Shown: positions 5,563-64,000, counted from the stretch's first letter. The stretch is DNA of 64,000 nt from Minisyncoccota bacterium (GCA_041662545.1 JBAZSH010000004.1:1803-65802); one strand, 5' to 3'. Program-made: numbers and translations. The notes: generated from the sequence alone by a model not told the origin.

Positions 5563-6044
5563 GAATTTTAATCGCCTCAGATCATGCCGGTTTTGAATTG
5601 AAAAATACTCTTTTCAATTTTTTGAAAGAGAAAAATTTTGAGGTGGTGGATTGCGGGCCGGATAAATTGGACAAGGAAGATGACTATCCTGATTTTGTCG
5701 CGCCAGTGGCGAAAGAAATTTCCACCGACGAAACGGGAAAAACTTTCGGCATTGTCATCGGCGGTTCTGGCCAAGGTGAAGCTATGTGTGCCAACCGTTT
5801 TCCGCGCGTCCGCGCGGTGGTTTTCTATGGGAATCCGGAGAGGTCAGACCTCTCTTCAGATTTGAGGTCTGACCTCATTAAACTCACGCGTCAGCACAAT
5901 AATGCCAATGTTCTAGCGATTGGCGCGAGGTTTGTATCCAAAGAAGAAGCGAAAAAGGCCGTGCTACTTTGGCTAGAAACACCTTTTGGCGGCGAGACAC
6001 GCCATCTCCGTCGGATTGAAAAAATTGATAAATCAGCACTATGA
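5559..6044 (+). CDS. rpiB: ribose-5-phosphate isomerase B (RpiB/LacAB family). It carries an in-frame REP-like insertion encoding ERSDLSSDLRSDL.
   Basis: MRILIASDHAGFELK...GIVIGGSGQGEAMCANR is RpiB-like. It overlaps the gap stop codon. Confidence 0.75.
   Translation: MRILIASDHAGFELKNTLFNFLKEKNFEVVDCGPDKLDKEDDYPDFVAPVAKEISTDETGKTFGIVIGGSGQGEAMCANRFPRVRAVVFYGNPERSDLSSDLRSDLIKLTRQHNNANVLAIGARFVSKEEAKKAVLLWLETPFGGETRHLRRIEKIDKSAL
5841..5875. repeat. in-frame REP-like inverted doublet in rpiB
   Basis: AGGTCAGACCT-ctcttcagatttg-AGGTCTGACCT. Confidence 0.85.
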
Positions 6045-6667
6045 TTGAAATTGTACCGGCAATTTTGCCAAAAAATTTTGAGGACTTTGAAGATTTGGAC
6101 AACAAATTGTCGCGACTTGAAAACCAAGTGGAATTAGCGCAAATTGATATTTGTAATCCAAAGATTTTTGAAAAAACTGGATTGCCCCATTGGCAAAATT
6201 TTGGTTTAGAAGTTGACTTAATGTTTAAAGAAGCGGAAAGAGAAGTTGGTTGGCTCATTGGTCTAAGAACTATCAGATTCATTATCCACCCAAACCTAAG
6301 CCGAATAGAAAAAGTAAAAGAGATGCTGGAAGACTTAAAAGGAGTAGTTTACTTCGGTATCGCTTTGGATTGGCAAAATTCTCTTAAAGATCTAGAACCT
6401 TTTATTGGACTAATTGACACCATACAAGTAATGGGCATAAAAAAAATCGGTTTTCAGGGCGAACCGTTCGAAGAATCAACTATTGACAAAGTGATGACAT
6501 TAAGAAAAAAATACCCCGAACTTGCGATTAGTGTTGATGGGGGAGTAAATTTGGAAAACGCACCACAACTAATTAAAGCTGGCGCAACTCGTTTAGTTAT
6601 TGGCTCAGCGATTTTTGGAAGCGGTGATTTGAAAGCAGTAATAGAAAAATTTAAAAAATTGGGATGA
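6041..6667 (+). CDS. rpe: ribulose-phosphate 3-epimerase-like TIM-barrel protein
   Basis: ISVDGGVNLENAPQLIKAGATRLVIGSAIF resembles the RPE C-terminal motif. It sits between rpiB and tkt, in pentose-phosphate context. Confidence 0.55.
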   Translation: MIEIVPAILPKNFEDFEDLDNKLSRLENQVELAQIDICNPKIFEKTGLPHWQNFGLEVDLMFKEAEREVGWLIGLRTIRFIIHPNLSRIEKVKEMLEDLKGVVYFGIALDWQNSLKDLEPFIGLIDTIQVMGIKKIGFQGEPFEESTIDKVMTLRKKYPELAISVDGGVNLENAPQLIKAGATRLVIGSAIFGSGDLKAVIEKFKKLG

Positions 6668-7536
6668 GTATCAGTCAAGAAAAAATTAAACAATTGGAAC
6701 GAAAGGCAAAGGAGATTCGCCGAACGGTGATTGAAGCACTGATGAATGCTGGTTCTGGACATACCGCCGGTCCGTTGGGTATGGCGGATATTTTTGCTTA
6801 TCTTTTTTTTCACGCCTTAAATCACGACCCAAAAAAACCAAACTGGCCCGAGCGCGATCGATTGATTGTTTCCAACGGCCATATTTGTCCGGTGCTTTAC
6901 GCGGCAATGGCTAACACCGGCTATTTTCCGGTAAAGGATTTAATCAACGGCTTGCGAAAATTCGGCTCACCATTTCAAGGCCATCCGCATCGCGATTTTT
7001 TACCAGCATTGGAAACCAGTTCTGGCCCACTCGGTGAAGGATTATCACAGGCGGCAGGCATGGCACTAGCAGAGAGAGCAGATTTCGGAATTCAAGGTCG
7101 AACCTTGGATCTGAAAAAAGGTTCGACCTTTATGTCCAAATTCTTCTTTTGTATTCTCTCCGACGCAGAATTACAAGAAGGTAATATCTGGGAAGCAGTG
7201 ATGCTGGCGGCAAAAGAAAAACTTGGCAATTTAATCGCTATTGTTGACCACAACAAAATTCAAATCGATGGTTGGACCGAAGAAATTATGCCCTTGGAAC
7301 CATTACGAGAAAAGTGGGAGGCCTTCGGCTGGCACACGGCAGAAATTAATGGCCACGATTTTCAAGAATTAGATACGGCAATTTCGGCAGCAAAAATTTT
7401 CCACACCAAACCATCGGTTATTATCGCCCACACCATTGCCGGCAAGGGTGTCAAAGAATTTGAAAATAAACCCGAATGGCACGGCCGCGCACCAAGCAAA
7501 GAGGAAGGGGAGAGGGCATTAAAAGAACTTCAATAG
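6664..7536 (+). CDS. tktA: transketolase N-terminal (TPP-binding) subunit of a split transketolase. It carries an in-frame REP-like insertion encoding QGRTLDLKKGSTF.
   Basis: It has GHTAGPLGMADIF and a TPP-binding fold. The length is 290 aa, and a separate C-terminal half lies at 8165. Confidence 0.8.
   Translation: MSISQEKIKQLERKAKEIRRTVIEALMNAGSGHTAGPLGMADIFAYLFFHALNHDPKKPNWPERDRLIVSNGHICPVLYAAMANTGYFPVKDLINGLRKFGSPFQGHPHRDFLPALETSSGPLGEGLSQAAGMALAERADFGIQGRTLDLKKGSTFMSKFFFCILSDAELQEGNIWEAVMLAAKEKLGNLIAIVDHNKIQIDGWTEEIMPLEPLREKWEAFGWHTAEINGHDFQELDTAISAAKIFHTKPSVIIAHTIAGKGVKEFENKPEWHGRAPSKEEGERALKELQ
7094..7131. repeat. in-frame REP-like inverted doublet in the transketolase N-terminal gene
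   Basis: AAGGTCGAACCTT-ggatctgaaaa-AAGGTTCGACCTT. Confidence 0.85.
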
Positions 7537-7537
7537 T

Positions 7538-7852
7538 ATGGAAATAACCTATCTTTACAAAGATATTCAAAAATTTTTTGATTTTCTTGACAGGGCCACA
7601 GCTTTAAAAACAGTTCGTCTTGTTCAACTGCTTTCAGTGAGAGAATACCATCTAACTATGCCGTATAGTAAAAAGATCGGGAAAAATCTTTATGAGCTTC
7701 GTGTGGTTAATACTCAAAATGTTAGGGTTTTCTATACTTTTCATCAAGAAAAAATTGTCCTTCTTCATGCGGTGTATAAGAAAACTCAAAAACTTAAAAA
7801 GAGAACTTTGGAAATAGTGGGACAGAGACTCCGAAACTTGCAATTAAGATAA
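7538..7852 (+). CDS. HigB-like toxin (Gp49/RelE-ParE superfamily)
   Basis: LGKNLYELRVVNTQNVRVFYTFHQEKIVLLHAVYKKTQKLKKRTLE matches the Gp49/HigB consensus. An XRE antitoxin gene lies immediately downstream. Confidence 0.65.
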   Translation: MEITYLYKDIQKFFDFLDRATALKTVRLVQLLSVREYHLTMPYSKKIGKNLYELRVVNTQNVRVFYTFHQEKIVLLHAVYKKTQKLKKRTLEIVGQRLRNLQLR

Positions 7853-7875
7853 CATATATGTTATCATAACCTTAT

Positions 7876-8163
7876 ATGAAAAAGACAAAAATAAAATTAA
7901 TACCGTTTAGCACTATTACACACCAACTTTTAAAAGACCCGGAGTTTAGAAAGGTGTATGAGGAGTCGGCATTTGAGTTTGAGATAATCAAAGCGATTAT
8001 TCGTATTCGGGCGCAGAAAAAATTTACCCAACGAGAACTCGCCAAAAATATCGGGGTCGCTCAATCGTCGCTGGCGCGGTTTGAATCCGGCAGAATTAAT
8101 CCTACTCTTTCATTCCTAAAAAAAGTGACAAGGGGATTGGGATTACGATTGATGGTGAAATAG
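7876..8163 (+). CDS. HigA-like antitoxin, an XRE-family HTH transcriptional regulator
   Basis: FTQRELAKNIGVAQSSLARFESGRINPTLSFLKKVTRGLGLRL is an HTH_XRE signature. Confidence 0.65.
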   Translation: MKKTKIKLIPFSTITHQLLKDPEFRKVYEESAFEFEIIKAIIRIRAQKKFTQRELAKNIGVAQSSLARFESGRINPTLSFLKKVTRGLGLRLMVK

Positions 8164-8164
8164 A

Positions 8165-9181
8165 ATGTTTGAATCAAAATCAAAACTAAAATCTACGCGC
8201 GCTGGGTTTGGTGAAGGATTAGTACTGGCTGGGGAAAAAGACGAGCGGGTGGTAGCGCTGACGGCGAATTTGAAAGAGTCGGTTTGTATGAGCGCCTTCG
8301 CCGAAAAATTTCCCGAGCGGTTTTTTGATGTCGGCGTGGCAGAACAAAATTTAGTTGGGGTAGCCAGCGGTTTAGCGGCAATGGATAAAATTCCATTCAT
8401 CGGTTCATTCGCGATTTTTTCACCAGGTAGAAATTGGGAGCAAATCCGCACAACTATTTGCTACAACAATCAGCCGGTAAAAATTGTTGGCTCGCACAGC
8501 GGACTTTCCGCTTCGCTGGACGGCGGCAGCCACCAAATGCTGGAAGACATCGCCTTGACGCGAGTTTTACCAAATATGATTGTCCTCTCGCCCTGCGATG
8601 CCATTGAAGCGAAAAAAATGGTGGTGGCTGCCGCCGAAATTGATAAACCGGTCTACATCCGCCTCTCGCGAGCCGAAACACCAATTATTACCAGCGAAGA
8701 GGCGCCGTTTGAAATTGGGGAGGCAGAAATCATATTTCAGAAAAAAAGGTCAGACCTTTCTGAAAAAAGGTTAAACCTTAAATCTGAAGAAAGGTTTAAC
8801 CTTGAGGAATCCGAAATCGGAATCATTGCCACCGGCACAATGGTTTATAGAGCATTGCTGGCAGCAAAAGAATTAAAAGAAACCGGCATAGGTGTTTCGG
8901 TAATAAATTTATCAACCATCAAACCGCTTGATGAAAAAGCCATCATAAAATTAGCGGGAGAAACGGGCGCGATTGTAACGGTAGAAGAACATCAAATTGC
9001 CGGTGGTATGGGTAGCGCGGTTGCCGAACTTTTAGCAGAAAAATTACCAACACCAATTGAATTCATTGGTGTCCGTGACCAATTTGGCCAAACGGGCAAG
9101 TATGAAGAATTGATAAATCTTTACGGCTTAAATATTTTGCAAATCAAACAAGCTGTCCGACGAGTGTTAAAAAGGAAATAA
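8165..9181 (+). CDS. tktB: transketolase C-terminal (pyrimidine-binding) subunit. It carries an in-frame REP-like insertion encoding KRSDLSEKRLNLKSEERFNLEE.
   Basis: It has the Transket_pyr and C-terminal domains (FDVGVAEQNLVGVASGLA). The length is 338 aa. Confidence 0.8.
   Translation: MFESKSKLKSTRAGFGEGLVLAGEKDERVVALTANLKESVCMSAFAEKFPERFFDVGVAEQNLVGVASGLAAMDKIPFIGSFAIFSPGRNWEQIRTTICYNNQPVKIVGSHSGLSASLDGGSHQMLEDIALTRVLPNMIVLSPCDAIEAKKMVVAAAEIDKPVYIRLSRAETPIITSEEAPFEIGEAEIIFQKKRSDLSEKRLNLKSEERFNLEESEIGIIATGTMVYRALLAAKELKETGIGVSVINLSTIKPLDEKAIIKLAGETGAIVTVEEHQIAGGMGSAVAELLAEKLPTPIEFIGVRDQFGQTGKYEELINLYGLNILQIKQAVRRVLKRK
8756..8813. repeat. in-frame REP-like triplet in the transketolase C-terminal gene
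   Basis: AAGGTCAGACCTT ... AAGGTTAAACCTT ... AAGGTTTAACCTT. Confidence 0.85.
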
Positions 9182-9194
9182 TTTTGTCTATATA

Positions 9195-13899: not shown

Positions 13900-16800
13900 A
13901 TGGACAAATCGAAAACGGCCGAACGAGAGGAAAAAATTCTTAAGTTTTGGCGCGACAATAAAATTTTTGAAAAATCATTGGAAAAACCCGCGCCAAATGG
14001 GGAATTTACTTTTTATGATGGACCGCCTTTCGCTAGTGGTACACCTCATTTTGGTCATCTTCTGCCAACTTCTATCAAAGACGCGGTGCCGCGCTTTTGG
14101 ACAATGCGCGGTTTTCGAGTGGCACGCCGTTGGGGTTGGGATTGCCACGGTTTACCGGTAGAAAATTTAGTAGAAAAAGAATTGGGTCTGAAATCAAAAA
14201 AAGAAATAGAAAATTATGGGGTGGAAAAATTCAATGCGGTCGCGCGAGAGAGTGTCTTGCGCTATGCCGATATTTGGCGCGAGCAAATTCCGCGCTTCGG
14301 CCGGTTTGTGGATATGGATAACGATTACCGAACGATGGACGCTAATTACACCGAGAGTGTCTGGTGGGCCTTCAAAACACTTCACGGAAAAAATCTAATT
14401 TATGAGGGTTTCAAGCCAATGCATCTTTGCCCCCATTGCGGTACCACGCTTTCAAATTTTGAAGTGGCGCAGGGTTATAAAGATATCGCGGATATTTCAG
14501 TATATGCGAAGTTTAAAACTGATGATAAAACTTTCTTGCTGGCTTGGACCACTACACCGTGGACTTTACCGGGTAATGTCGCATTGGCGGTGGGAAAAGA
14601 TATTGATTATGTAAGGGTAGGAATAATGAATAAGGAATTAGGAATTAGGGAAGAATATATTTTGGCAAAAGCGCGGTTAGTTGTTTTGAAACAGGAATAT
14701 GAAATTTTAGAAGAATTCAAAGGAGAAAAATTGGTAGGTAAATCATATGAGCCAATTTTTGATTATTATAAAGGTCAGACCTTGGGGAATCGAGACCGGG
14801 GTTGGAAAATTTACGCCGCAGATTTTGTAACCACCGAAGACGGCACCGGCATTGTCCACATCGCGCCGGCTTTCGGCGAGGCCGATATGAAATTGGGCGA
14901 AAAAGAAAAATTGCCTTTTGTTCAGCATGTTGGTGTTGATGGAAAATTTAAGAGCGAAGTTTCTGATTTTGCTGGCCAAGATGTCAAACCAAAAGATGAC
15001 CCGACTCGTGCCGATGTCGCTGTGTTAAAATTTCTAGCCGCTAAAAATCTTTTATTCGCCAAAGAAAAAATTACTCACTCCTATCCGCATTGCTGGCGCT
15101 GCGAAACACCGCTTTTGAATTACGCCGCTTCTTCGTGGTTCGTAAAAGTGACGGCATTGAAAAATAAATTACTTGCCGAAAATGAAAAAATTCACTGGGT
15201 GCCGGAAACAATAGGGAAGTATCGTTTCGGTAATTGGCTGGCCGAAGCGCGAGATTGGGCAATTTCCCGCTCACGCTTCTGGGGCGCGCCATTGCCCGTT
15301 TGGCGTTGCGACAAATGCGGAAAATTGGAAATCATCGGCTCAATTGAAGATATAAAAAAACACCTGAAACCGCGCAATCGCTATATTGTAATGCGCCACG
15401 GCGAGTCGGAAAATAATGTAAAGGGAATTTTAAACACTGATTTAAAAAATAATGTTTTTCATCTGACTGAAAATGGAAAAGCTCAAACTAGAGAAAGTGC
15501 TGAAAAATTAGCGGTGGAAAAAATTGATTTGATTTTTGCTTCACCTTTTGCCCGAACAATCGATACCGCCGAGCTTGTCCGAGAAAAACTCGGTTTACCG
15601 AAAGAAAATTTGGTGATAGATGAGCGGCTAAAAGAAATTTCTGGCACTGAATTTGAGGGTTCGCCAGAAAGTGGTTATGGTAAATTTTACAAAAATTTTG
15701 AGGAAAGGTTTACAAAACGACCAAATGGCGGTGAAAATTATTTGGAGATAAAGAAGCGACTGGGAGATTTTCTTCAAGAAATTGACACTAAACACACTGG
15801 AAAAAACATTTTAATTGTTACTCACGGAGCGCCGGCTTGGCTCCTAGAACATACCGCCCTCGGTCTAACACCAAAACAAATGGCGCAGGTCTGGAAAAGA
15901 GAATCACTTTTACCAAACAGCCAATATCGAGAATTCTCCTTTCTTTCTTTGCCCCTTAACGAAAATCATGAATTAGATTTACATCGACCATTTATTGACT
16001 CCATCGAATTTGATTGCGCTTGTTCCGAAAAAATGCGACGAGTGCCGGAAGTTTTTGATTGCTGGTTTGAAAGCGGCTCAATGCCTTTTGCCGAATGGCA
16101 CTATCCCTTCGACTCCGCTCAGGGCAAGCCCTTTGAAAAAATTTTTAATCCTAAGCCCGGCTGGTTTCAAAAAGCAAAAAGATTTCCAGCCGACTTTATT
16201 GCTGAAGGATTGGATCAAACCCGCGGCTGGTTTTATTCCATGCTGGTGCTTGGTGTCGCTTTGTTCGGCAAATCACCTTACAAAAATGTAATCGTGAATG
16301 GTTTAGTTCTAGCCGAAGACGGCCGGAAAATGTCAAAAAGCTTAAAAAATTATCCGGACCTTATGCCGACCGTTGAAAAATATGGCGCCGACGCCATCCG
16401 TCTATATCTTTTGTCATCGCCAGCAGTGAGGGCTGAAGATGCTCGATTTTCCGAAAAGGGTGTGGATGAAGTGGCAAAAAAAGTCCTCGGCCGACTTGAT
16501 AATGTTTTGGCTTTTTATTTGCTTTACGCGGATAAAAATTTAACCAATGACCGTCAACCAACAACCAGCAACATTTTGGACCAATGGATACTGGCGCGAT
16601 TAAACCAACTTATCAGTGAGGTAACAAAGGCGATGGAAAATTATGAACTAGACAAGGCGGCGCGGCCGATCGGCGACTTCGTGGATGATTTGTCCACTTG
16701 GTATTTGCGCCGCTCCCGCGAGCGTATTAAAAACGGCGATGGGGACGGCCGCGCCGCGCTAGCAACTCTGCGTTTCGTATTGTTGGAACTTTCAAAAATA

Positions 16801-17379
16801 ATTGCGCCCTTTACGCCGTTTTTCTCGGAATATTTGTATAAAACAGTTGGCGGCGAAAAAGAAAGTGTGCATTTGGATAATTGGCCCGCCTGCAAGGCAG
16901 ACGGGCGAGGCGTTGCGGGCGGGCCCGAGACCAACTTACTTGAGGAAATGAAAGAGGTGCGACGGATAGTTTCATTGGCTTTGGAAGCACGAGCAAAAGC
17001 GAATATAAAAGTCCGACAACCGCTCGCTTCGCTTCGCATTAAATTTGGCATCAATTCACATATGGTTAATTTAATAAAAGATGAAGTGAATGTGAAGGAA
17101 ATTACTTTTAGCAACGAACTGAAAAATGAAGTGGAATTAGATACCACTATTACACCTGAGTTAAAAAGGGAAGGGAACTATCGGGAAGCGGTGCGACAAA
17201 TTCAAGAATTGCGAAAAGAAAAAGGCCTACGGCCCGGCCAATTGGCAACTCTCGCCACTTCAGCCCAAATTGCCTCCACTGGTTTGCTTCAAGAATTTGA
17301 GGATGATTTAAAACACTCCGCCTCGCTGGAAAGAATAAATCACGGTGTTTTAGCCGAGGGCGATTTTGAGTTGCGTTAA
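13900..17379 (+). CDS. ileS: isoleucyl-tRNA synthetase, with an internal ~200-aa histidine-phosphatase (PGM-like) domain insertion and one REP singlet
   Basis: It has PPFASGTPHFGHLL (a HIGH-type motif), the editing domain, a zinc knuckle WRCDKCG and KMSKSLKN. The segment RNRYIVMRHGESENN...IVTHGAPAWL is inserted before HRPFIDSIEF. Confidence 0.85.
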   Translation: MDKSKTAEREEKILKFWRDNKIFEKSLEKPAPNGEFTFYDGPPFASGTPHFGHLLPTSIKDAVPRFWTMRGFRVARRWGWDCHGLPVENLVEKELGLKSKKEIENYGVEKFNAVARESVLRYADIWREQIPRFGRFVDMDNDYRTMDANYTESVWWAFKTLHGKNLIYEGFKPMHLCPHCGTTLSNFEVAQGYKDIADISVYAKFKTDDKTFLLAWTTTPWTLPGNVALAVGKDIDYVRVGIMNKELGIREEYILAKARLVVLKQEYEILEEFKGEKLVGKSYEPIFDYYKGQTLGNRDRGWKIYAADFVTTEDGTGIVHIAPAFGEADMKLGEKEKLPFVQHVGVDGKFKSEVSDFAGQDVKPKDDPTRADVAVLKFLAAKNLLFAKEKITHSYPHCWRCETPLLNYAASSWFVKVTALKNKLLAENEKIHWVPETIGKYRFGNWLAEARDWAISRSRFWGAPLPVWRCDKCGKLEIIGSIEDIKKHLKPRNRYIVMRHGESENNVKGILNTDLKNNVFHLTENGKAQTRESAEKLAVEKIDLIFASPFARTIDTAELVREKLGLPKENLVIDERLKEISGTEFEGSPESGYGKFYKNFEERFTKRPNGGENYLEIKKRLGDFLQEIDTKHTGKNILIVTHGAPAWLLEHTALGLTPKQMAQVWKRESLLPNSQYREFSFLSLPLNENHELDLHRPFIDSIEFDCACSEKMRRVPEVFDCWFESGSMPFAEWHYPFDSAQGKPFEKIFNPKPGWFQKAKRFPADFIAEGLDQTRGWFYSMLVLGVALFGKSPYKNVIVNGLVLAEDGRKMSKSLKNYPDLMPTVEKYGADAIRLYLLSSPAVRAEDARFSEKGVDEVAKKVLGRLDNVLAFYLLYADKNLTNDRQPTTSNILDQWILARLNQLISEVTKAMENYELDKAARPIGDFVDDLSTWYLRRSRERIKNGDGDGRAALATLRFVLLELSKIIAPFTPFFSEYLYKTVGGEKESVHLDNWPACKADGRGVAGGPETNLLEEMKEVRRIVSLALEARAKANIKVRQPLASLRIKFGINSHMVNLIKDEVNVKEITFSNELKNEVELDTTITPELKREGNYREAVRQIQELRKEKGLRPGQLATLATSAQIASTGLLQEFEDDLKHSASLERINHGVLAEGDFELR
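14771..14783. repeat. REP-like singlet AAGGTCAGACCTT in ileS
   Basis: It is an exact 13-mer shared with the other copies. Confidence 0.5.
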
Positions 17380-24092: not shown

Positions 24093-24160
24093 ATATTCTT
24101 ACACTTATTATTCACTATAGGAAATTATAAGTGTATAGGGAAATCTATAATCTAGAAATA

Positions 24161-24175
24161 CCAGGTCTGACCTGG
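24161..24175. repeat. intergenic REP-like singlet CCAGGTCTGACCTGG
   Basis: It has the same GGTCTGACC core. It lies downstream of the 873-aa gene. Confidence 0.5.
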
Positions 24176-24204
24176 TAAATCAAAAAATAAATAAAAATTG
24201 GCAA

Positions 24205-24263: not shown

Positions 24264-25022
24264 TTAGTCAACAGCACGAAGCCAGATTGACACCTCCTCG
24301 CCATTTGGATACCGCTCGAACCCTTGAAAAAAGGTTGGATTGGTATCAGTTGACGGCACAGGACTCAGCCACCAATTTCCTTTCTGGAACGGTAGAGACA
24401 ATTGTTCGAAAGTTCCGTCACTGTAGTAATAAACCGTCACTTGGCTCTGTGGCAAATAAACCTCAAAGTCAATGCGCGCTTTATCATGAAATGAACCACC
24501 ATAGTAGGTAATTTTTGCCCCAAATAGATTGTTCCTTTGTGTTGGGTCCAATCCTTTCACCTTATCGGACTTCAAACAACCGTATCTCCACTTCTTATCT
24601 GTCACTGATTTGGTAATAGAGACCCCAGTTGCTTTCGGCAAAATCATTTCCTTACCTGCCGACACCATTGAAACCAAAAGGCAGGTGAGTGTTAGAAGTA
24701 ATGCTACTACCCCGACTATTTGTGGTTTGGCATATTTCAACAGGATTACACTAACAACGAATCCAAGTTGAATGAACCAGAACCCGTTCGTCTTTAGCCA
24801 GTGTCCGAAAAATTCCGGAAAGCACTGCCAGATGAGAATCAAGCAAAACACTTGTCCTCCGATGGCGAGTAGCCATCCGAGGTTTCCAGTAGTATTTTTA
24901 AACCACTGTCCGGCAGTGCCATTATTGAGTCCCGGTACTTTGATTTTTGTCATCACGCCACCCATGGTTTTAAAAGCGACGATGACAATGGCCACAGCCA
25001 GTCCAATTAGTAGGATTTTCAT
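24264..25022 (-). CDS. hypothetical polytopic membrane protein, co-oriented with and 1 nt after the SPFH gene
   Basis: It has four predicted TM helices followed by a soluble C-terminal domain. It may be an NfeD-like partner. Confidence 0.45.
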   Translation of the reverse strand: MKILLIGLAVAIVIVAFKTMGGVMTKIKVPGLNNGTAGQWFKNTTGNLGWLLAIGGQVFCLILIWQCFPEFFGHWLKTNGFWFIQLGFVVSVILLKYAKPQIVGVVALLLTLTCLLVSMVSAGKEMILPKATGVSITKSVTDKKWRYGCLKSDKVKGLDPTQRNNLFGAKITYYGGSFHDKARIDFEVYLPQSQVTVYYYSDGTFEQLSLPFQKGNWWLSPVPSTDTNPTFFQGFERYPNGEEVSIWLRAVD

Positions 25023-55910: not shown

Positions 55911-57286
55911 AACATTTTTATTGCTTTGTCAAGACGAGCCAAGGATTCTTCTTTGCCAAAGATTTCCAATAAAGTAAACGGGTCAGGCGATTTTTCCAAA
56001 CCAGACAAAGCCACCCGCAAAGGCCATAGAACCTCCCCTTTCCCCTCTTTTTCCGCCAGTGTCATCAATTCTGTAAGGTTGAACCTTAAGGTTGAACCTT
56101 GCGCTGCCAGAATTTCCCGCGCCCGCCCAAGGCGGGCGCGCGTTTTTCCCTCATCTTTATCTTTCTTCCACAAAAGTAGTTCCTTGGGGTATTCCGGCAT
56201 TTGGAAAAAATATGCCAGCTCTCCCCTTTCCGCCATAATTTTGATGTCGCTAAATTTACTAATTCGTTCCAACACCAATGGCGCGATTTTTTCCAAAATC
56301 TTTTCTGTTTCTGTGTCTTCCCCCAATCCCAAAACTTCTTTGATTTTTTTGATAATTGGTAATTGGTAATTAGGCATTTTCTTGATGTGTTCCCTATTCA
56401 TCCAATCCAATTTTTCCACATCAAAAATCGCGCCACTCTGCTGAACTTTTGCCAAATCAAAATTTTCTATCAATTCTTTCACAGAAAAAATCTCTTGCTC
56501 ATTGCCCGGATTCCAACCAAGCAAAGCCAAATAATTTATCAATGCTTCGGGCAAATATTCTTGCTGCCGATAAAAAGCCACCGAGACGCTTTCGCCGTGT
56601 TTCCGTTTGGAAAGTTTAGAACGATCCGGCGCGAGTATTAGTGGAATGTGAGCGTAAAACGGCTGCTTGCCCGCCGATGAGGCGGGCTCGCCATCTCCCA
56701 GCGCCCGCCAAATCAGAATTTGGCGGGGCGTATTAGAAATATGGTCCTCGCCGCGAATAATGTGCGTGATTCCCATTTCCCTATCATCCACCACATTGGC
56801 AAAATGAAAAATCGGCTCGTCCAAACTTTTGGCAATTACAAAATCGCCAAGCTCTTTGGTGTCAAAAGCAATCTCGCCTTTTATCAAATCGTTGAAAACA
56901 ATTTTTTGGCCGGGATTTTTGAAACGAATCACTTCATCGCGCTTCCCCTCCCCGCCCTCTTCTTTGGACACATAGGCCACGCCGGAATCCAAAAGTTGTC
57001 GCAAATATTTTTTATAAATCTCCAGCCGATCCGACTGGCGAAAAAATTCATCATGCTCAATCCCCAACCATTCCAAATTTTCCAAAATATCTTTTTCGTA
57101 TTCCGGCTTACCGCGTTCTTTGTCGGTATCTTCCACCCGCAAAATAAACTTCCCACCGTGTTTGCGGACAAACAAAAAATTAAACAATGCTGTTCGCGCG
57201 CCACCCAAATGTAGCCACCCCGTCGGTGACGGCGCGAAGCGCGCCCTTACTTCTTTTTCTCCTTTCTCCATTTTTTTCTCCATCAT
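55907..57286 (-). CDS. gltX: glutamyl-tRNA synthetase. It carries an in-frame REP-like tandem encoding GSTLRFNLT.
   Basis: RFAPSPTGWLHLGGARTALFNF is a HIGH-class motif, and LSKRKHG is KMSKS-like. Confidence 0.85.
   Translation of the reverse strand: MMEKKMEKGEKEVRARFAPSPTGWLHLGGARTALFNFLFVRKHGGKFILRVEDTDKERGKPEYEKDILENLEWLGIEHDEFFRQSDRLEIYKKYLRQLLDSGVAYVSKEEGGEGKRDEVIRFKNPGQKIVFNDLIKGEIAFDTKELGDFVIAKSLDEPIFHFANVVDDREMGITHIIRGEDHISNTPRQILIWRALGDGEPASSAGKQPFYAHIPLILAPDRSKLSKRKHGESVSVAFYRQQEYLPEALINYLALLGWNPGNEQEIFSVKELIENFDLAKVQQSGAIFDVEKLDWMNREHIKKMPNYQLPIIKKIKEVLGLGEDTETEKILEKIAPLVLERISKFSDIKIMAERGELAYFFQMPEYPKELLLWKKDKDEGKTRARLGRAREILAAQGSTLRFNLTELMTLAEKEGKGEVLWPLRVALSGLEKSPDPFTLLEIFGKEESLARLDKAIKML
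56075..56100. repeat. in-frame REP-like tandem in gltX
   Basis: AAGGTTGAACCTT AAGGTTGAACCTT. Confidence 0.8.
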
Positions 57287-57305: not shown

Positions 57306-58049
57306 TCAGCTTTTAACAGGTTTTGTCTTGATTTCGCAGGTCAAACCTGCGAAATTGTCATCTTTTTCAATATCGGCTCTTCCTAAAATAAAATCTTTCG
57401 CAAAATTCTTAAAATCTTTTGGCGAAGAAAAAACCTCGCCTAGCAACCCTTTTTCTAAAATTAGTGAATATTCTCTATTGCCAGTATAATCAGCCAAACT
57501 ACAAAAAGGATAATTTATTGCCCACCGAAAGGCGTCTTCAAAATTATCACGGGCATTTTTTAAACCTCCTGGATATAACTCCATTGGATTTTTAACCATA
57601 ATATAAACCGCCAGATAACGAAAATATTTGTCATCTTGGATAGTTCTTGCTTTATATGAACCTTGAAAAATACTTCCTGCTTCGCCATATTTCAGATTAA
57701 AATGACCAGTCATACTATTGCCGAGCTTTTGCATAAACTTTGCTATCCCACCATTGATAGTTTCTTTAGCTAATATATGAAAATGATTAGGCATTAATGT
57801 GTAAGAAAGGATGGATGTTAGAGGCTTCTGTTTTGGCCAATTAATTGGTCGATCAAATATCTTCGCACCCCTTTTTACATTTTCCTCAAGTTCTTCTTCC
57901 CAACGCTCAGAAATATATTCATCATTTAAATGACGAAGAATTTTTAAAAAACGCCAATGATCACTCTCGTCTTTTACAATCGGCAATTTTTTGGCACCTC
58001 TTTTTAAAATGTGAACATAATTTCCAACTGTGAATGGTTCTTTTCGCAT
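57306..58049 (-). mobile_element. REP-associated tyrosine transposase (RAYT)-like IS200-family HUH transposase, flanked by REP/REPIN hairpins
   Basis: YTLMPNHFHILAKE is the HuH motif and YLAVYIMVKNP is the catalytic Tyr-x4-NP motif. The length is 247 aa. A REP singlet overlaps the 3' end (57331-57355) and a REPIN doublet sits at 58078-58126 just upstream. Confidence 0.6.
57331..57355. repeat. REP-like palindrome ATTTCGCAGGTCAAACCTGCGAAAT. It encodes the RAYT C-terminus.
   Basis: It is a perfect palindrome apart from the CAAA centre. Confidence 0.8.
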
Positions 58050-58077: not shown

Positions 58078-58126
58078 TTTCTGCGCAGGTCAAACCTGCG
58101 AAATTCGCAGGTTTGACCTGCGCAGA
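58078..58126. repeat. REPIN-like doublet, a 49-bp perfect palindrome made of two inverted REPs
   Basis: TTCTGCGCAGGTCAAACCTGCGAA|ATTCGCAGGTTTGACCTGCGCAGAA. Confidence 0.85.
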
Positions 58127-58146
58127 ATGCAGATTTGCTAAATTAG

Positions 58147-58578
58147 CTATTTCTTGAACTTGGAGATCTGGGCATCTGCCTGCCGAAATTTTTGCCAAGA
58201 TTTTTCTAACCGAAACATTTTACCGCGCACATCCATATAACGCCGAGACAGGTCTTCAATCAAGTCCGAAGAAAGTTTTGCCCCATAAATGCCGGCCACC
58301 TGCTCAAGATAGACGATCATTTTATTACAACCAAGCATAGCTTTTTCAAGTGTAACAACCGCCACCTTGAAATCCGAAAAACGCATACCGTGCGACTCGG
58401 CGATAAAAAGCGGAATTGAGAGAGCGCAATTGGTCATCCCTTCCAGTAAATCGTATTTAAGTTTTACCAACTCTGGCCTAATATCTTTGTAAAAAATCAC
58501 CGCGCCTTCAAGCGTCTTTTGATACACCTCTAAATCGCGAAAACTGCGAATTGGTTTTTTGGGTTTAAAAGTGTACAT
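58147..58578 (-). CDS. four-helix-bundle protein (23S rRNA intervening-sequence protein family)
   Basis: FRDLEVYQKTLEGA... matches the typical LEVWQ-type N-terminus. The length is 143 aa. Confidence 0.55.
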   Translation of the reverse strand: MYTFKPKKPIRSFRDLEVYQKTLEGAVIFYKDIRPELVKLKYDLLEGMTNCALSIPLFIAESHGMRFSDFKVAVVTLEKAMLGCNKMIVYLEQVAGIYGAKLSSDLIEDLSRRYMDVRGKMFRLEKSWQKFRQADAQISKFKK

Positions 58579-58587
58579 TTTATTAAT

Positions 58588-59853
58588 CTACACGATAATC
58601 GCTTTCCTCTCAATATTCTCTCTCGGCACCTCTACTTTTAAACCATCTTTAAATCTTACGAATCTTTTCTTTTTTCCACTTAATTTTTTCACCACATGGA
58701 GCGGATAAAATTCAAAATAATCTTTTTCGTCAAACCAACCGCATTTAAATTCAAAAAGTCGCAATCCAGTCAACCGACTCATCGCCATAGCATACCAGGT
58801 CAATTGCTCAATCGGCTGTTCTTTGGCGGCATTTGGTTTGTAATCCAGCAAATGAACGCAACCGTTACGAATCTGTATAAAGTCAATATGACCAGTCAAT
58901 AATTTCGGCATCGGGACCGGCCGTCCCGATGCCGATTTTGACTTGACTCCTGTGGTATTATTTCTTTTTAGTTCGATTAATCCATTATCAGTCACTTTAA
59001 ACTTCAACACATTTTCCATATGCTCCACATCTTCGCGCCGAATATATACCGGCACTTCAGTGGCGACAGTACAAGAATCATTGGCAATAAAAAATCTTTG
59101 CAATTCTTCATGCCGCGCTTTATTCTCCGTAACCGCTTTCAAAACAAAATTGGCAAGCAGATTGGCAAAATTTTCTTTGCTTCTAACAATCATATCGGCT
59201 TTGTCAAATTTGCTTTTTATTTCCGACATCCGCGCCCCTTCTTGGAAATATTGATGCGGGGTTTCCGAGGAAACGCTGTCAAGATATTCTTTTAGTGGCT
59301 TCAAATTCCGATTCCTAAATTCCTCCAACATCAAATAGGTTTTTGCCCTGTGATAACGAAATCGGTAAAGTTGGCGATGCGCCATTGTTACCACCTCAAC
59401 CGTCTCCTCTGGTTTACAATACTTAACCGCCCACGGCCGTAATCTTTCATAACGGCAAAGTGGCTTGTATTCCTCTATCCACCCAGAAAGCGTTTGCGGG
59501 TCCGGCGCCGAACCAAATTTTTTCTTTACCAAGGCGCAAGCGTATTCAAGAGTAAAGCCGAGATTGTAATAGCTCATACTATCAATAATTATTCTCAGTG
59601 GAAATTTTTTACCTTTGATATCTCGCGCCGTAAATGTCCGACCGCAAACGGGATTACGGCAAAGATATAATTGCGCTTCGCCAAATTTATTTTTTCTTAC
59701 GCCTCTTTTTACAAAATCCACGGACTCACAATAAGGACAAAATTCAGCAGGTTTTTGAACAATTATTTCCGTATCACGCGTAGATTTTACCGCCGTATCA
59801 CGACTTTCTTGAGTTTTTGCCACTAACCCCGTCATTCGTGATATTTTTTTCAT
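58588..59853 (-). CDS. hypothetical protein with an N-terminal transposase-type C4 zinc ribbon and a C-terminal PD-(D/E)xK-like nuclease motif
   Basis: The zinc ribbon is CPYCES...GEAQLYLCRNPVCGRTFTARD. The C-terminal motif is HIDFIQIRNGCVHLLDYKP (a D...D.K pattern). Confidence 0.35.
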   Translation of the reverse strand: MKKISRMTGLVAKTQESRDTAVKSTRDTEIIVQKPAEFCPYCESVDFVKRGVRKNKFGEAQLYLCRNPVCGRTFTARDIKGKKFPLRIIIDSMSYYNLGFTLEYACALVKKKFGSAPDPQTLSGWIEEYKPLCRYERLRPWAVKYCKPEETVEVVTMAHRQLYRFRYHRAKTYLMLEEFRNRNLKPLKEYLDSVSSETPHQYFQEGARMSEIKSKFDKADMIVRSKENFANLLANFVLKAVTENKARHEELQRFFIANDSCTVATEVPVYIRREDVEHMENVLKFKVTDNGLIELKRNNTTGVKSKSASGRPVPMPKLLTGHIDFIQIRNGCVHLLDYKPNAAKEQPIEQLTWYAMAMSRLTGLRLFEFKCGWFDEKDYFEFYPLHVVKKLSGKKKRFVRFKDGLKVEVPRENIERKAIIV

Positions 59854-59868: not shown

Positions 59869-62800
59869 TTATTCTATTATTGGAGGTGTCGTGGACGCCA
59901 CATCAGGAGTGGTCGTAGCTGTCTCCACCGGAATTTCTATCGTTGGTGGCGGTTCTATTGGTGGAATAATTGGCGGAGTAGTCGTCCCCGTGCCTGATGT
60001 TGTCGTGGCTCCTGCGGTATCGGTCCCGGAACCCACATTCACCACCCGCGTGCTCGTCGCCGTTAAATTATTATTATCCGTCGCCGAGTAATCAATGGTG
60101 TATGAAGTGCTGGTGGAAGTGTCCAGAGAAATCGTGCTTACTTGCGCGCCATTCACAAAGTAATGCACGCTCAAATCAAGTCCATTGCTGTCTCGGGCAA
60201 TCACCCCCAAATCAACATAGGTCGCCCCAACAGAAATTTCGGCTGGATTGTTTCCTTGAATCAAAATCGTCGGGACACCAACCACCCCTTCATCCACTCC
60301 TTGATAAGGAGGGGTGCCGTCAGGCGGGGTGATGCCCCCGCCCGCCTGCACCAACATCGCTTTCAGTTGGTCTTTACTAACACAAACATCATCAACACAC
60401 AGCTGATTTTCCACCCGCACAGTGCCCACAACCAGATTAGCGATCCGTGTAAGGGTTTGACTGATGGCCACTCCCCAATCGGCAAATTTCGCTAAAATCG
60501 CCTCCGTAACCCGCGAGATAAAACTTTGGTCAGCAATAACATTGGCCGTGCTACTGGCGATAATTTGGTCAATGCTTGTTGAAGCAAAAGCTCGGGCAAG
60601 CTCGGCAGTGGAACTAGCAATTTCATTTATCCGTGTGTTCAGTTCCTGCACCCCCTTAATCACCTTCCACGAACTAACCTCCGACACGCCGTAATATCCA
60701 TCCGAACCCATTGAAACCAAATCATCATAACCAGCGGCAAGAAGTTCTTGCGCGACTACACCAGTTTTCTTGTCTCCAGAAGCGATAACTTTGTAATCTT
60801 TAATAGGCAAACCCAAGAGGTATGGTAATTCAGGCATAGCGGCAACGATGTCGGTCTTTAATCTAGCGTCTGATGAGCAGGTTGGCGTCACTCCGCCCGA
60901 CTCGGGATTCCAGGTGCAGTTGCCGTCGGTGTCAAGAAGTTGGAACATATCTCCATCACTAGTATACTCAACTGACAATTTGTAAAGGGGACTCGTCGTC
61001 CCGATGCCGACGTTGCCGGAATCCAGTAACTTAAATAAGACCGACGTCCCAGCCCCATTCCAAATTTCGTAATTCTCGCCCGTGGCAGGCAGGTATGTTT
61101 GAAGCGTGTCATCGGGTGTTATCCTAAAAATTGTCGATAAGCCACCTGCTGCCCTACGCGCTTTATATCCAGAATTGTTTCCAATGATTATAGACCCGCC
61201 AACAATTTCAAGCTTGTCGCCTGGCCCATTCGTTCCAATGCCGATGTTGCCGGTTGTTGCTTGGACTACGACAGCACTTGCAACACCCGCAGTATTTAAT
61301 TTCAAATCTCCAGTCAGAGCACTACTTCCGACAGTTACATTTTCCGAAGCATCAGCCCCTAGAACATTTCGTGCCGCTCCAGCCACGTTTTGGACTTGAT
61401 AATAGAAGGCGTTATCTATTTGAATATTTCCAACAGCCACATCCAGTTTTGCCTGTGGGTCCGTCGTCCCGATGCCGACGTTGCCGCCGTTTGGTGCTAA
61501 CAAAGTTTGTCCACTAATGTTGTCAACTTGAAATCTTGATGTTGTTTGGTCAGCACTAGTAATAATAAAACCTTGAGTTCCTACACCACCACCCGTGTTT
61601 GTTGTCGGATAAAGATATAGAAACTCATTAGCATTTAGACCAAAATTCCAATTTCCCCTGTTCCCGACAGTATCGCTAATTCTTAACGCACTGGTTGCAC
61701 CACTGACAGTTGCCGTAACTTGTAATTTAGACGCTGGACTCGTCGTCCCGATGCCGACGTTGCCGCTTGCCGTAGCGAAATATGCCGAACCAGTGGAACC
61801 AATCTGCGTGGTGGAAGCATTACCAAAAGTCTGTAAAGCAGTCCAAACATTTGCGTTTGCCATATTCAAATCAAGAGCCGACGAACCACCGAGAGAGATT
61901 GGTGAGGTGCCGACGGTAACGCTTCCGCTACTTGTCAGACCGATGGTGGAGTTGGCAAGGTAGGAATTGATGACGGAACTAGCGGGCAAGATGACGCCTC
62001 CCGAAATTGTCAGACCGTTGGTGCTGGAGAGACCAGCTGTCGCCACTCCGCCGGCGAAAGTTGAGGTAGCAGTGGAGGTAGAGGTAATCTTGGAAACCTC
62101 CAGACCATTCCAGAAGGAAGCGAATCGGGAAAGAATATCGCCTGCGAATGTTGTTGTCCCCGTGCCGGTGTAAGTGGTATTGCCCGCGACCGACAGATTG
62201 CCCGAAAGCGTAGCGTCGCCGAGGTAAGTATTATGAGCGACGATACCATTGCCAATAAAGTTATGCGTCCCTTCCACTTCTATGTCATAGACCTGCTCGG
62301 CGGGCAGTTTTTCTATCTTTACGATTTTATCCCAACGAGTAGTGTCTCTTTGTCCTTCAATAGCGATTTCCTGACCTTCTTTAATATCTATCACCTTGCG
62401 CCACATACCGTTTTTGCTGTCCACAGGGGGAGCGCTTGACAAGTAACCTCTATGGGTATAAGCTACAGGCACTATCCCCGAGGCGGAGACGTTCGTAGTC
62501 TCCGCCTCATTGTTTTTATCACTGGCGCCAACATACTCCACCAAATGACGCACAGAATTGAGGTGTATAAATTTAGAACCAAATAAACTGCGTAAATCCC
62601 CGGCGGAACTTTCTGTTGTGCTTACGAGTCGGACTGATTGTTTTTTCTCAAGCAAGTGCTTCAATACATCGTAATAATCTCCGTCACCAGTCATTACTAT
62701 CGCGGCATCATATTCGCCAATCCGACGCATCATCTCAAAAGTCATGGCGGAATCAACATCCGCTTTCGCCTCGCGTCTCGCAATGAGACGAGTTAGTACA

Positions 62801-64000
62801 AGAACCAACTCATATCCAACACGGAGTAAGGTGTCATACAAATTCGCCCTTTTCTTATTGTGAGTAGTACCACAAAAGAAAAACACACGAGAGACCCCAT
62901 AGCGACTAGTCAGATATGTATAAAGTTTTTCATAATCAACCTCCCACCCCTCACGCAAGGTAGCGTGATAAACATTGGAAGCGTCAATAAAAGCAAAAAC
63001 ACGACTATGGCTATTAACCATTGACGTGTTTTTGTCAGAGTTAAATACATTACCATCGTTGGCACATGTGATTCTCTTTAGAGAATTGATGGATGTATTT
63101 CGATTAAGTTGTCCTCCAACCCCTGTATTGGAGTGAGCGAGGGCTTGGTGCCATACCTCGCTAGCTGGCTTTATTTTATCAAAAGCAATATTTTTTGACA
63201 ACACAAAATACGGATGCTCAGCTGTGGTGCGAATGGTTTTGCCACTGGAGGTAGTAAGTTTGAAAATCGGTCTTGTTCCCATCTCCATCATAACTTTGAC
63301 TTTGCGATAAACAATTTTGCCTGTAGTTTCGTCTAAAGTTGCGATTTCGTCGCCTGGTTGAATATCCTTAATGGCGACTTCATCGTAGATGAAGTCGGAT
63401 TCCTCAAGGTCAGACCTTTCTTTAGATCCAAGGTCTGACCTTTTCCCTCCGACTTTCCCTTTCTTACGCCGTCTGCGGCGAAGTTTCGTATCTCCCGTCA
63501 CACAATGACCCATTAGATTGGTAATACCTGAAATCAATGCTCCGCCTTGAACGGCGAAGTCCGTCCCCGGCGTGCTCGTCCCCACCCCCACCTTGCCGTT
63601 AGAATCAATAATAAAAGCGGTGGAGGTGGCGGAGGCGGTGGAAGAAGAAATTGTGAACAAAGGCGTAGTGCCGAGTGAAGCGCCGGCCACCGAAAACCGA
63701 GCCCAAGGGGAAGTCGTCCCGATACCGATATTGCCTGCTGTTTCCACGCCAGAAACTGCCGAGCCGTTATACATTCCCGTCCCATACAAAACATTGCCGA
63801 TATTTAGTTGTTGCGAGCCGGTGTTGGATGGCAAGTCCACATTTTGACCAATGGCGATATTATATGCTCCGGTAGTTAGAGAAAATCCAGATTGATAACC
63901 CAAGAGAGTATTGTAATCGCTTCCAGTAGACGCAGAATATCCAGATTGATAACCGATATAAGTGCCACCTTGATTGTTGTAATTCGCAGTACCAGCTCCA
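59869..64000 (-). CDS. giant tail-fibre-like surface protein (more than 1376 aa; the 5' end lies beyond the window). It has GIGTTSP repeat modules, an S74 intramolecular-chaperone domain and an inserted intein.
   Basis: Repeats include NVGIGTTSP, NIGIGTN and GKVGVGTST. GVVAQELLAAGYDDLVSMGSDGYYGVSEV..IKGVQEL resembles the endosialidase chaperone domain. The reading frame stays open upstream of the TTG at 63903. Confidence 0.65.
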   Translation of the reverse strand, partial: GAGTANYNNQGGTYIGYQSGYSASTGSDYNTLLGYQSGFSLTTGAYNIAIGQNVDLPSNTGSQQLNIGNVLYGTGMYNGSAVSGVETAGNIGIGTTSPWARFSVAGASLGTTPLFTISSSTASATSTAFIIDSNGKVGVGTSTPGTDFAVQGGALISGITNLMGHCVTGDTKLRRRRRKKGKVGGKRSDLGSKERSDLEESDFIYDEVAIKDIQPGDEIATLDETTGKIVYRKVKVMMEMGTRPIFKLTTSSGKTIRTTAEHPYFVLSKNIAFDKIKPASEVWHQALAHSNTGVGGQLNRNTSINSLKRITCANDGNVFNSDKNTSMVNSHSRVFAFIDASNVYHATLREGWEVDYEKLYTYLTSRYGVSRVFFFCGTTHNKKRANLYDTLLRVGYELVLVLTRLIARREAKADVDSAMTFEMMRRIGEYDAAIVMTGDGDYYDVLKHLLEKKQSVRLVSTTESSAGDLRSLFGSKFIHLNSVRHLVEYVGASDKNNEAETTNVSASGIVPVAYTHRGYLSSAPPVDSKNGMWRKVIDIKEGQEIAIEGQRDTTRWDKIVKIEKLPAEQVYDIEVEGTHNFIGNGIVAHNTYLGDATLSGNLSVAGNTTYTGTGTTTFAGDILSRFASFWNGLEVSKITSTSTATSTFAGGVATAGLSSTNGLTISGGVILPASSVINSYLANSTIGLTSSGSVTVGTSPISLGGSSALDLNMANANVWTALQTFGNASTTQIGSTGSAYFATASGNVGIGTTSPASKLQVTATVSGATSALRISDTVGNRGNWNFGLNANEFLYLYPTTNTGGGVGTQGFIITSADQTTSRFQVDNISGQTLLAPNGGNVGIGTTDPQAKLDVAVGNIQIDNAFYYQVQNVAGAARNVLGADASENVTVGSSALTGDLKLNTAGVASAVVVQATTGNIGIGTNGPGDKLEIVGGSIIIGNNSGYKARRAAGGLSTIFRITPDDTLQTYLPATGENYEIWNGAGTSVLFKLLDSGNVGIGTTSPLYKLSVEYTSDGDMFQLLDTDGNCTWNPESGGVTPTCSSDARLKTDIVAAMPELPYLLGLPIKDYKVIASGDKKTGVVAQELLAAGYDDLVSMGSDGYYGVSEVSSWKVIKGVQELNTRINEIASSTAELARAFASTSIDQIIASSTANVIADQSFISRVTEAILAKFADWGVAISQTLTRIANLVVGTVRVENQLCVDDVCVSKDQLKAMLVQAGGGITPPDGTPPYQGVDEGVVGVPTILIQGNNPAEISVGATYVDLGVIARDSNGLDLSVHYFVNGAQVSTISLDTSTSTSYTIDYSATDNNNLTATSTRVVNVGSGTDTAGATTTSGTGTTTPPIIPPIEPPPTIEIPVETATTTPDVASTTPPIIE
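62230..63504 (-). mobile_element. intein (425 aa) whose central domain is a NYN/PIN-like nuclease rather than a LAGLIDADG/HNH homing endonuclease
   Basis: The splicing blocks are present: block A CVTGDTKL after the extein ...NLMGH, block B TTAEHPYF, blocks F and G VYDIEVEGTHNFIGNGIVAHN, and a +1 Thr. The central domain is the NYN domain FIDASNVYH...FFFCGT...DVDSAMTFEMM...IVMTGDGDYYDV. Confidence 0.65.
63406..63443. repeat. in-frame REP-like inverted doublet inside the intein of the giant protein
   Basis: AAGGTCAGACCTT-tctttagatcc-AAGGTCTGACCTT encodes KRSDLGSKERSDLEE. Confidence 0.85.

Follow-up and report, generated by a model that had tools for sequence, protein, structure and literature searches.

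A palindromic repeat within coding sequences

We analysed a 64,000-nt stretch of a Minisyncoccota bacterium assembly (GCA_041662545.1 JBAZSH010000004.1:1803-65802; hereafter the window), in which a 13-nt palindromic unit, AAGGTYNRACCTT, recurs inside housekeeping genes. The usual element is ~37 bp long (36-39 nt) and consists of one unit, an 11-nt purine-rich spacer and the reverse-complement unit; AAGGTCAGACCTT is one doublet form of it. Doublets of this kind are found in genomes across the Patescibacteria, and the window also contains a transposase gene bracketed by hairpins with the same core. Our data point to a system of the type formed by repetitive extragenic palindromes (REPs), their hairpin-forming doublets (REPINs) and REP-associated tyrosine transposases (RAYTs), with most of its copies residing in translated DNA.

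An earlier note on this DNA had described a recurring 13-bp palindromic unit, and the counts bear this out: AAGGTYNRACCTT has 15 exact matches in the window where 100 dinucleotide-preserving shuffles give an expectation of 0.01, and 27 copies of the 9-nt core GGTYNRACC are present where the shuffles give 3.2. Four variants of the centre occur within the 64 kb and are matched between the arms of a pair. Spacers measure 11 nt in rpiB, in the N-terminal and C-terminal transketolase halves (tktN and tktC), in the GT4 glycosyltransferase gene and in the gene for a giant intein-bearing surface protein, and 10 nt in pheT. As single-stranded DNA, a doublet is predicted to fold as an 11-nt loop closed by a 13-bp stem (free energy, dG, -13 to -14 kcal/mol; z -4.4 to -5.4); the values are -14.4 kcal/mol (z -5.2) for rpiB, -13.7 kcal/mol (z -4.5) for tktN and -13.1 kcal/mol (z -4.4) for GT4.

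All copies of the AAGGT type in the window lie within intact open reading frames (ORFs), their hosts being rpiB, Transketolase_N, Transket_pyr/C, ileS, GT4, pheT, gltX and the surface protein (Table 1). Pfam matches identify RpiB, Transketolase_N, Transket_pyr with Transketolase_C, GT4, PheT, GluRS and the intein-bearing surface protein; the name IleS comes from the earlier note, and orthologues of the window ileS align along their length. A search of the window allowing two mismatches added a second flavour, CAGGTYNRACCTG, and the rpiB pair GAGGTC[A/T]GACCTC, a two-mismatch variant of AAGGTYNRACCTT with outer bases G..C rather than A..T and a spacer that runs in the opposite orientation to those of the other copies. 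The second flavour, (C)GCAGGTCAAACCTGC(G), is present at 31254, 57337 and 58079-58127, with CAGGTCTGACCTG at 24162, and two of these four sites are intergenic. The statement in the earlier note that genic copies keep the frame thus holds for every AAGGT-type copy, while some members of the family lie between genes. Its coordinates were correct save that the tktC cluster begins at 8746 rather than 8756 and has three units (starting at 8746, 8767 and 8791), and the inverted-doublet layout that it described recurs at most sites (with 10-11-nt spacers) but gives way to a tandem in gltX and to single units in ileS and at pheT 39710. The pheT copies at 39710 and 39585-39635, the second flavour and the transposase (57306-58049(-)) were absent from it.

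Table 1 Repeat copies and the transposase gene in the window, by position.
Feature	Position (nt)	Strand	Sequence or centres	Reading or context
rpiB doublet	5840-5876		GAGGTCAGACCTC-11 nt-GAGGTCTGACCTC	Read as ERSDLSSDLRSDL
Transketolase_N (tktN) inverted doublet	7094-7130		CGA/TCG centres	Read as QGRTLDLKKGSTF
Transketolase C-terminal half (tktC), three units	8746-8803		CAG, TAA, TTA centres	Read as KRSDLSEKRLNLKSEERFNL
ileS single unit	14771-14783			Read as KGQTL
Intergenic hairpin	24159-24177		TACCAGGTCTGACCTGGTA, core GGTCTGACC	Between ORFs 21471-24092(+) and 24264-25022(-)
Two adjacent self-complementary hairpins	31231-31271		CCCGAGTCAGACTCGGG + CGCAGGTCAAACCTGCG	In-frame, LTD/PKD surface-protein ORF
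GT4 glycosyltransferase inverted doublet	32415-32451		CAG/CTG	Read as ERSDLKSGERSDL
Decayed doublet, pheT N-terminal region	39585-39635		RMSDIRHLQTSDI	
pheT single exact unit	39710-39722			Read as KVEP
pheT C-terminal doublet	40882-40917		10-nt spacer, imperfectly matched arms TAA/TCA	Read as TRLNLEEQKGSTF
gltX, two units in direct tandem, spacer-less	56075-56100			Read as QGSTLRFNL
RAYT-like HUH Y1 transposase	57306-58049	-	HxH (NHFH), Tyr in YIMVKNP	247-aa ORF
Hairpin	57331-57355		ATTTCGCAGGT-CAA-ACCTGCGAAAT	3' end of transposase ORF
Perfect 24+24 nt inverted repeat	58079-58127		Two CGCAGGTYNRACCTGCG units	Intergenic, 30 nt upstream of transposase start codon
Intein doublet, 1344-aa surface protein	63406-63442		CAG/CTG	Read as KRSDLGSKERSDL

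An exact-pattern scan of one genome per species found at least 117 stretches with a doublet, nearly all of them from metagenome-assembled genomes (MAGs) of Patescibacteria and spread over Kaiser-, Zambryski-, Nomura-, Taylor-, Adler-, Lipton-, Vogel- and Moranbacteria and Paceibacterota; the distribution is phylum-wide. Among the matches listed, 116 of 129 doublets have a second arm that exactly reverse-complements the first (1/16 would do so by chance), and the centre triplets include CAG, CGA, CGG, CCG, TAA, TGA and others. This matching and the shuffles together rule out chance or codon bias. Long open frames contain about 65% of the doublets among the matches listed (87/134); the others are found in short ORFs or between genes. 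The 11-nt spacer has a partly conserved, oriented sequence of roughly RRRWMTKNARA, and the stem often reaches 1-2 bp past the 13-mer, with a weak CC...GG extension in the flank profiles. A known RNA family was also rejected, as no Rfam family besides five tRNAs reached threshold in the window.

A few matches bear labels from outside the Patescibacteria. Loci L005, L055, L074, L034, L080, L086 and L105 are labelled Phocaeicola, Tenacibaculum, Bacteroides, Pacearchaeota or Verrucomicrobia, and those in L005, L055, L074, L080, L086 and L105 have 9-nt spacers, include some direct repeats and mostly lie outside long ORFs; such matches may reflect chance, another repeat family or mis-binned contigs. 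Carriage by phages was considered and rejected, a doublet being present in a single contig of a viral collection of 2.9 million. That contig (L202:11324-11405, IMGVR_UViG_3300039239_000044) has two doublets 10 nt apart and could be a fragment from the Candidate Phyla Radiation (CPR) classed as viral, or a phage with an acquired element.

Filled, empty and rearranged sites among relatives

Orthologous sites were compared in syntenic rpiB-rpe-tktN-tktC loci from metagenomes, and the loci of relatives are given L-numbers here; L118 is a near-identical copy of the window. Metagenome samples such as Ga0172379 and Ga0209542 supplied L118, L120-L122 and L128. The presence of the element varies among these relatives. 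In tktN it is shared with L121 (78% identity) and L122 (68%), and it is missing from the genes of L123-L141, which are shorter by 11-12 aa. At the insertion spot of L119 and L120 the deletion is larger: their tktN genes (L119:3179-3991 and L120:4001-4813; 88% and 86% identical, the closest after L118) have lost the element together with ~8 flanking native residues, a state that looks like imprecise loss of a former insertion.

The rpiB doublet occupies one site in the window, L119, L120, L121 and L124 and is missing from L130, L125, L096 and L123, whose kind of empty orthologue is ~9-10 aa shorter at the loop. Across 120 database homologues, this loop measures 23 aa when empty, 24 aa with one unit, 32-33 aa with a doublet and 37-38 aa when expanded. 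A large group of CPR RpiB proteins (P0261, P0263, P0274 and others) has a loop 8 aa longer that reads 'NGQYEPKDGR(K/T)VPNE', and the DNA at this longer loop in L122:2621-3079 contains GGTCGAAC; the longer loop may be a very old, decayed unit.

Similar differences were found at three further sites. The window tktC is 20 aa longer than the empty orthologue of L121 (72% identical) and other orthologues, and L122 has a doublet of its own in the same loop; the window GT4 protein is 14 aa longer than its L071 orthologue, and the C-terminus of PheT is 12 aa longer than in L020 and L108. The empty orthologous sites in these five genes mark the rpiB, tktN, tktC, GT4 and C-terminal pheT segments, on alignment, as genuine in-frame insertions. 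The earlier note had proposed that relatives would separate insertion from convergence, and related genomes without the segment were indeed found for each of the five. It had also credited eight genes with an added loop; a net gain is seen in these five and not in ileS, gltX or at pheT 39710, where the copies are collapsed or length-neutral. Its suggestion to place the peptides on structures was followed for one protein, RpiB, whose AlphaFold2 model puts the insert between a strand and a helix as a low-confidence loop (predicted local distance difference test, pLDDT, 58-76 in residues 91-110) in an otherwise confident fold (pLDDT at least 90, apart from lower values in the last few C-terminal residues); the modelled insert appears to sit in a tolerant surface region.

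The copies that add no length have histories of their own. In ileS, L016 has a full doublet at the alignment column of the window unit and the motif-free L088 protein has the same length as that of the window; the single unit is probably a collapsed doublet. The gltX genes of relatives at 72-83% identity have RLNLFEDSRFNL at the position of the unit and show no net difference in length from PDB homologues or from relatives at 62% identity or less, and the spacer-less tandem of the window is 4 aa shorter still; it is a rearranged, length-neutral remnant of a doublet. Orthologues of the pheT 39710 segment read GVKVGPSP or NIKVGASP at unchanged length, so that this unit is probably the native conserved GVKVxPSP and no insertion. 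L020 and L108 have intact doublets at the aligned position of the decayed pheT copy (39585-39635). We infer that slippage between near-identical palindromic arms 24 nt apart deletes or adds one unit and spacer in-frame, which accounts for the single units and the triplets.

Depending on the frame, the same DNA unit yields RSDL, GxT(L/F) or KVxP. Frame use (50/25/12) fits what would be expected if any stop-free frame and orientation were acceptable (43.5/25.7/17.8; p=0.23), and this fit suggests that the peptides are by-products of the palindrome, as the earlier note had supposed, and probably neutral ones. A motif selected at the protein level was rejected, since a single DNA unit is used in three frames and both orientations and its frame use amounts to stop avoidance. 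A modest bias places the purine-rich form of the spacer on the coding strand (49 vs 28, p=0.02).

Pairing between the arms is conserved where their sequence is not. At the orthologous rpiB site, the arm sequence differs in each of five genomes, and the two arms of every pair are perfectly complementary to each other. In L119 (arms AAGGCTAAACCTT / AAGGTTTAGCCTT) and L121 (arms AAGTCTAAACCTT / AAGGTTTAGACTT), the palindrome within each unit is broken and the pairing between units is kept; the aligned arms indicate that complementarity is kept through compensatory changes. The DNA of the tktN unit is identical in the window and L122 despite the 68% identity of the proteins. These observations are evidence that the constraint acts on nucleic acid and not on protein.

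The doublet in the surface-protein gene lies directly after intein block A. The intein runs from C134 to N558 (nt 63504-62230), and the Pfam Intein_splicing match resumes at residue 175, HMM position 9; the intein copy probably adds a loop. Because the doublet is inside the intein, splicing would remove its peptide from the mature surface protein. The ORF itself (59869-63903(-)) contains a canonical intein, C134...HN558/T, with an NYN domain in the place usually taken by a homing endonuclease.

Two further features lie close to host genes. A Gp49-like (DUF891, toxin-like) ORF stands between the transketolase halves at 7538-7852(+); in most loci having both tktN and tktC, tktC follows tktN almost directly, and L120 has a Gp49-like homologue elsewhere (L120:1970-2251). 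The GT4 gene also contains an unrelated perfect 21-nt palindrome, CGATTTTGCGACGCAAAATCG, at 32040-32060, 355 nt upstream of the doublet.

A RAYT-like transposase and its hairpins

The window transposase matches Pfam Y1_Tnp (PF01797, IS200-like) at 29.5 bits (cut-off 23), and an identical protein is annotated as a transposase in a Candidatus Paceibacterota MAG. A protein search returned 361 homologues, every organism-named match being labelled Patescibacteria/CPR or 'bacterium', and residues H88, H90 and Y148 are invariant across 44 aligned homologues. Sequence-only searches of the PDB with this protein, single and profile, gave nothing significant. The AlphaFold model (mean pLDDT 92) has as its best fold match 4ER8, the E. 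coli REP-associated tyrosine transposase with a REP hairpin (E 2.4e-6), followed by IS608, ISDra2 and IS200 TnpA.

Hairpins with the GGTYNRACC core bracket this gene, at 58079-58127 (dG -31.2 kcal/mol, z -10.4) and at 57331-57355 (an 11-bp stem, dG -11.8 kcal/mol, z -5.6). The physical association of doublets and transposase extends to other genomes. Among 117 8-kb loci selected solely for holding a doublet, 11 contain a transposase homologue, against about one by our own estimate for a gene present once per ~1-Mb genome. Units or doublets lie directly upstream of the gene in 5 of 12 homologue-bearing sequences (the window, L079, L031, L014 and L036), three of which have them downstream as well. 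L198, L200 and L201, which were picked by protein similarity alone, have hairpins on both sides of the transposase; their flank stems differ between genomes, with an apex of GTCAGAC or ATCAGAT.

The hairpin type found at the transposase also occurs elsewhere in the same loci: as a doublet inside gatB in L198, as copies in L017 and, in the window, as the second LTD/PKD hairpin (31254). Flank type and dispersed type likewise agree in L079, L031, L014 and L036. In L198, gatB holds two doublet types (16490-16549 and 16944-16999), GAAGTC[T/A]GACTTC, as at the transposase flanks, and AGAGGTC[A/T]GACCTCT, so several repeat subfamilies coexist in that locus with the one transposase seen. Seven independent transposase genes, those of L079, L062, L031, L036, L029, L091 and L006, have a hairpin or doublet inside them at ~nt +145 to +210, where the window protein has a helix-and-loop region (residues ~49-76); the gene's own elements seem to have targeted it repeatedly.

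A single copy of the transposase is present in the 64 kb, and no locus examined had two. Gene order (SecA...tnp...Obg-GatB) is common to L198 and L201 even though their enzymes are 46% identical, which points to vertical inheritance rather than hopping in the manner of an insertion sequence (IS). The neighbours in the window are gltX, a weak 23S-IVP-like ORF and a weak PD-(D/E)XK ORF; the two ORFs upstream (58147-58578(-) and 58588-59853(-)) gave sub-threshold Pfam matches to the 23S rRNA intervening-sequence protein and a PD-(D/E)XK nuclease. No TnpB adjoins the gene, and an IS605-type tnpA-tnpB unit was rejected on this ground.

Origin and persistence of the elements

We consider it probable that the window and its relatives harbour a REPIN/RAYT-type system whose hairpins survive in the gene-dense CPR genomes mainly as in-frame insertions that are translated and resemble Rickettsia palindromic elements (RPEs). 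The elements would be non-autonomous hairpins of ~37 bp, two inverted 13-nt REP units AAGGTYNRACCTT around a ~11-nt spacer. By analogy with E. coli TnpA-REP and IS608 TnpA, the solo RAYT-like enzyme of the window would most likely recognise the folded single-stranded hairpin, cut and join it, and so mobilise the elements, which may be copied to new sites during replication. The copies that persist would mostly be in-frame, stop-free landings in tolerant surface loops, because CPR genomes have very little intergenic space, and would be translated as peptides of 12-13 aa (RSDL, G(Q/R/S)T(L/F) or KVxP by frame). Later, a doublet could collapse to a single unit by 24-nt slippage, expand to a triplet or decay. 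The REP/REPIN reading offered in the earlier note is strengthened by the arm pairing (116/129), the compensatory changes, the empty sites and the hairpin-flanked RAYT-like transposase.

REPs are by definition extragenic, and in-frame copies have mainly been an oddity of Rickettsia and a handful of further genomes. Like the REP/REPIN-RAYT systems of E. coli (TnpA-REP, 4ER8) and Pseudomonas (REPINs), the present one has single units and inverted doublets that fold into a longer hairpin, a solo HUH Y1 transposase itself flanked by repeats, whose type recurs away from the gene in several loci, and a transposase location that is apparently vertical and syntenic. Unlike classical REPs, ~65% of the sampled doublets are inside long ORFs and translated. 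The enzyme, at ~230-250 aa, also differs from a classical RAYT in an extra C-terminal helical part, and one unit consensus serves a phylum-level group and not a genus.

With RPEs and the intragenic REPs of R. conorii and Opitutus terrae, the elements have in common that they are in-frame palindromes in housekeeping genes of a small, gene-dense genome and add short peptides at tolerated positions, as units and dimers and sometimes two per gene. At ~37 bp and 12-13 aa, they are much shorter than RPE-1, which is roughly 100-150 bp long. Their sequence is probably different from that of RPEs, and a likely cognate transposase is evident here, whereas we know of no clear mobilising enzyme for classical RPEs. 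The RPE-like behaviour claimed in the earlier note stands as regards in-frame insertion into intact ORFs, but the same is known from the REPs of Opitutus terrae and R. conorii: REPs have been reported inside genes and in-frame in several species, as monomers and as dimers and with the greatest abundance in these two, along with tyrosine transposases flanked by REPs and a conserved GTAG or CGTC tetranucleotide at the base of the REP hairpin (Di Nocera et al. 2013, PMC3733652). The principle of in-frame intragenic REPs is thus already known; our literature search found no paper on this motif or phenomenon in Patescibacteria.

IS200/IS605 elements (IS608, ISDra2) share with the window gene the Y1 HUH fold and the hairpins at both gene ends. 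Unlike them, it has no TnpB and no second copy in any locus examined, its position is syntenic between distant genomes, and the abundant copies are bare hairpins rather than the gene.

Several points weigh against the REPIN/RAYT interpretation. No transposition event was observed, and insertion boundaries and target sequence could not be derived from the closest empty sites because these are too diverged. Unlike classical REPs, the doublets have no GTAG/CGTC tag in their flank profiles, and the enzyme scores 28 bits against the NCBIfam RAYT model (NF047646, REP_Tyr_transpos), below the cut-off of 80. In the window, the dispersed stem (AAGGT...ACCTT) differs from the stem beside the transposase (CGCAGGT...ACCTGCG); the flank type recurs once, and the abundant AAGGT type has only the 9-nt core in common with it. 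The transposase copy number is that seen within the window and the loci. The motif occurs in gltX, ileS and at pheT 39710 with no net change in length, where a pure insertion model predicts otherwise. Finally, distant genomes repeatedly have copies in the same loops (those of rpiB, tktC, the pheT N-terminus and ileS, and one in the transposase gene itself), a recurrence that may reflect either ancient retention or insertion hot-spots.

A possible, though distinctly less probable, extension is that the RAYT and its REPINs form an ancient, vertically co-inherited and mainly intragenic partnership that predates the split between the major Paceibacteria lineages, with the hairpins maintained by selection or by the enzyme. 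If so, the elements would either serve the host or continually remodel the surface loops of core enzymes, and the concept of 'REPINs as persistent intragenomic replicators' would extend to translated DNA and to a phylum-level group.

A related account, which overlaps with the REPIN/RAYT interpretation and differs in why copies persist, holds that the hairpins are host-beneficial structural elements under selection, acting as DNA or RNA hairpins in replication, nucleoid organisation, mRNA stability or translation pausing, and that the Y1 enzyme is a domesticated maintenance factor. It would accommodate the same 13-nt unit across many Patescibacteria lineages, the tktN unit DNA shared by the window and L122, the compensatory arm changes at the rpiB site, the conserved synteny of the transposase and the coding-strand bias of the purine-rich spacer. 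We nevertheless regard it as unlikely, since many relatives thrive although their sites are empty or their copies decayed, and frame use shows no preference past stop avoidance. Arm complementarity could moreover be restored mechanically, without selection, by intrastrand template switching, an established process of quasipalindrome correction.

Template switching or slippage during replication, at short half-sites already present, might also have produced the palindromes locally and without a transposase; the Y1 gene would then be an IS200-type element that has no relation to them and has hairpins of its own at its ends. The length-neutral occurrences in gltX and at pheT 39710 are what such a process would leave, the native residues of empty sites are sometimes unit-like (G(R/K)TS in tktN, EDI/SDL in rpiB), and single units, doublets and triplets interconvert. 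Local formation leaves unexplained, however, why one unit and one oriented spacer (RRRWMTKNARA) are shared across hundreds of unrelated sites and genomes, why 11 of 117 doublet loci hold a transposase and why flank-type hairpins lie inside other genes of the same genome, and we find it improbable.

Also improbable is a DNA uptake signal or protein-binding site accumulated by biased uptake and recombination, for while Patescibacteria depend on imported DNA and the motif resembles the DNA uptake sequence (DUS) of Neisseria and the uptake signal sequence (USS) of Pasteurellaceae in being short, strongly over-represented, largely coding, read in all frames, often paired in inverted orientation, length-neutral in some occurrences and built on a phylum-wide shared core, it differs from them in a centre triplet that varies within one genome yet matches between the arms of a pair, in copies that are mostly net insertions (five genes), and in stems that differ between genomes and track the transposase flanks, and we know of no receptor for such a signal.

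The REPIN/RAYT-type system favoured here has several implications. For annotation and phylogenomics, the translated segments will appear as lineage-specific 'RSDL' insertions in CPR proteins, and AAGGTYNRACCTT doublets offer a simple DNA marker for Patescibacteria contigs. The matched filled and empty protein pairs show loops of core enzymes tolerating insertions of 12-20 aa. In-frame insertion of palindromes is seen here together with a likely enzyme, across a large uncultured group with ~1-Mb genomes, and these bacteria provide a natural system for understanding how a hairpin transposon survives when nearly every site is coding.

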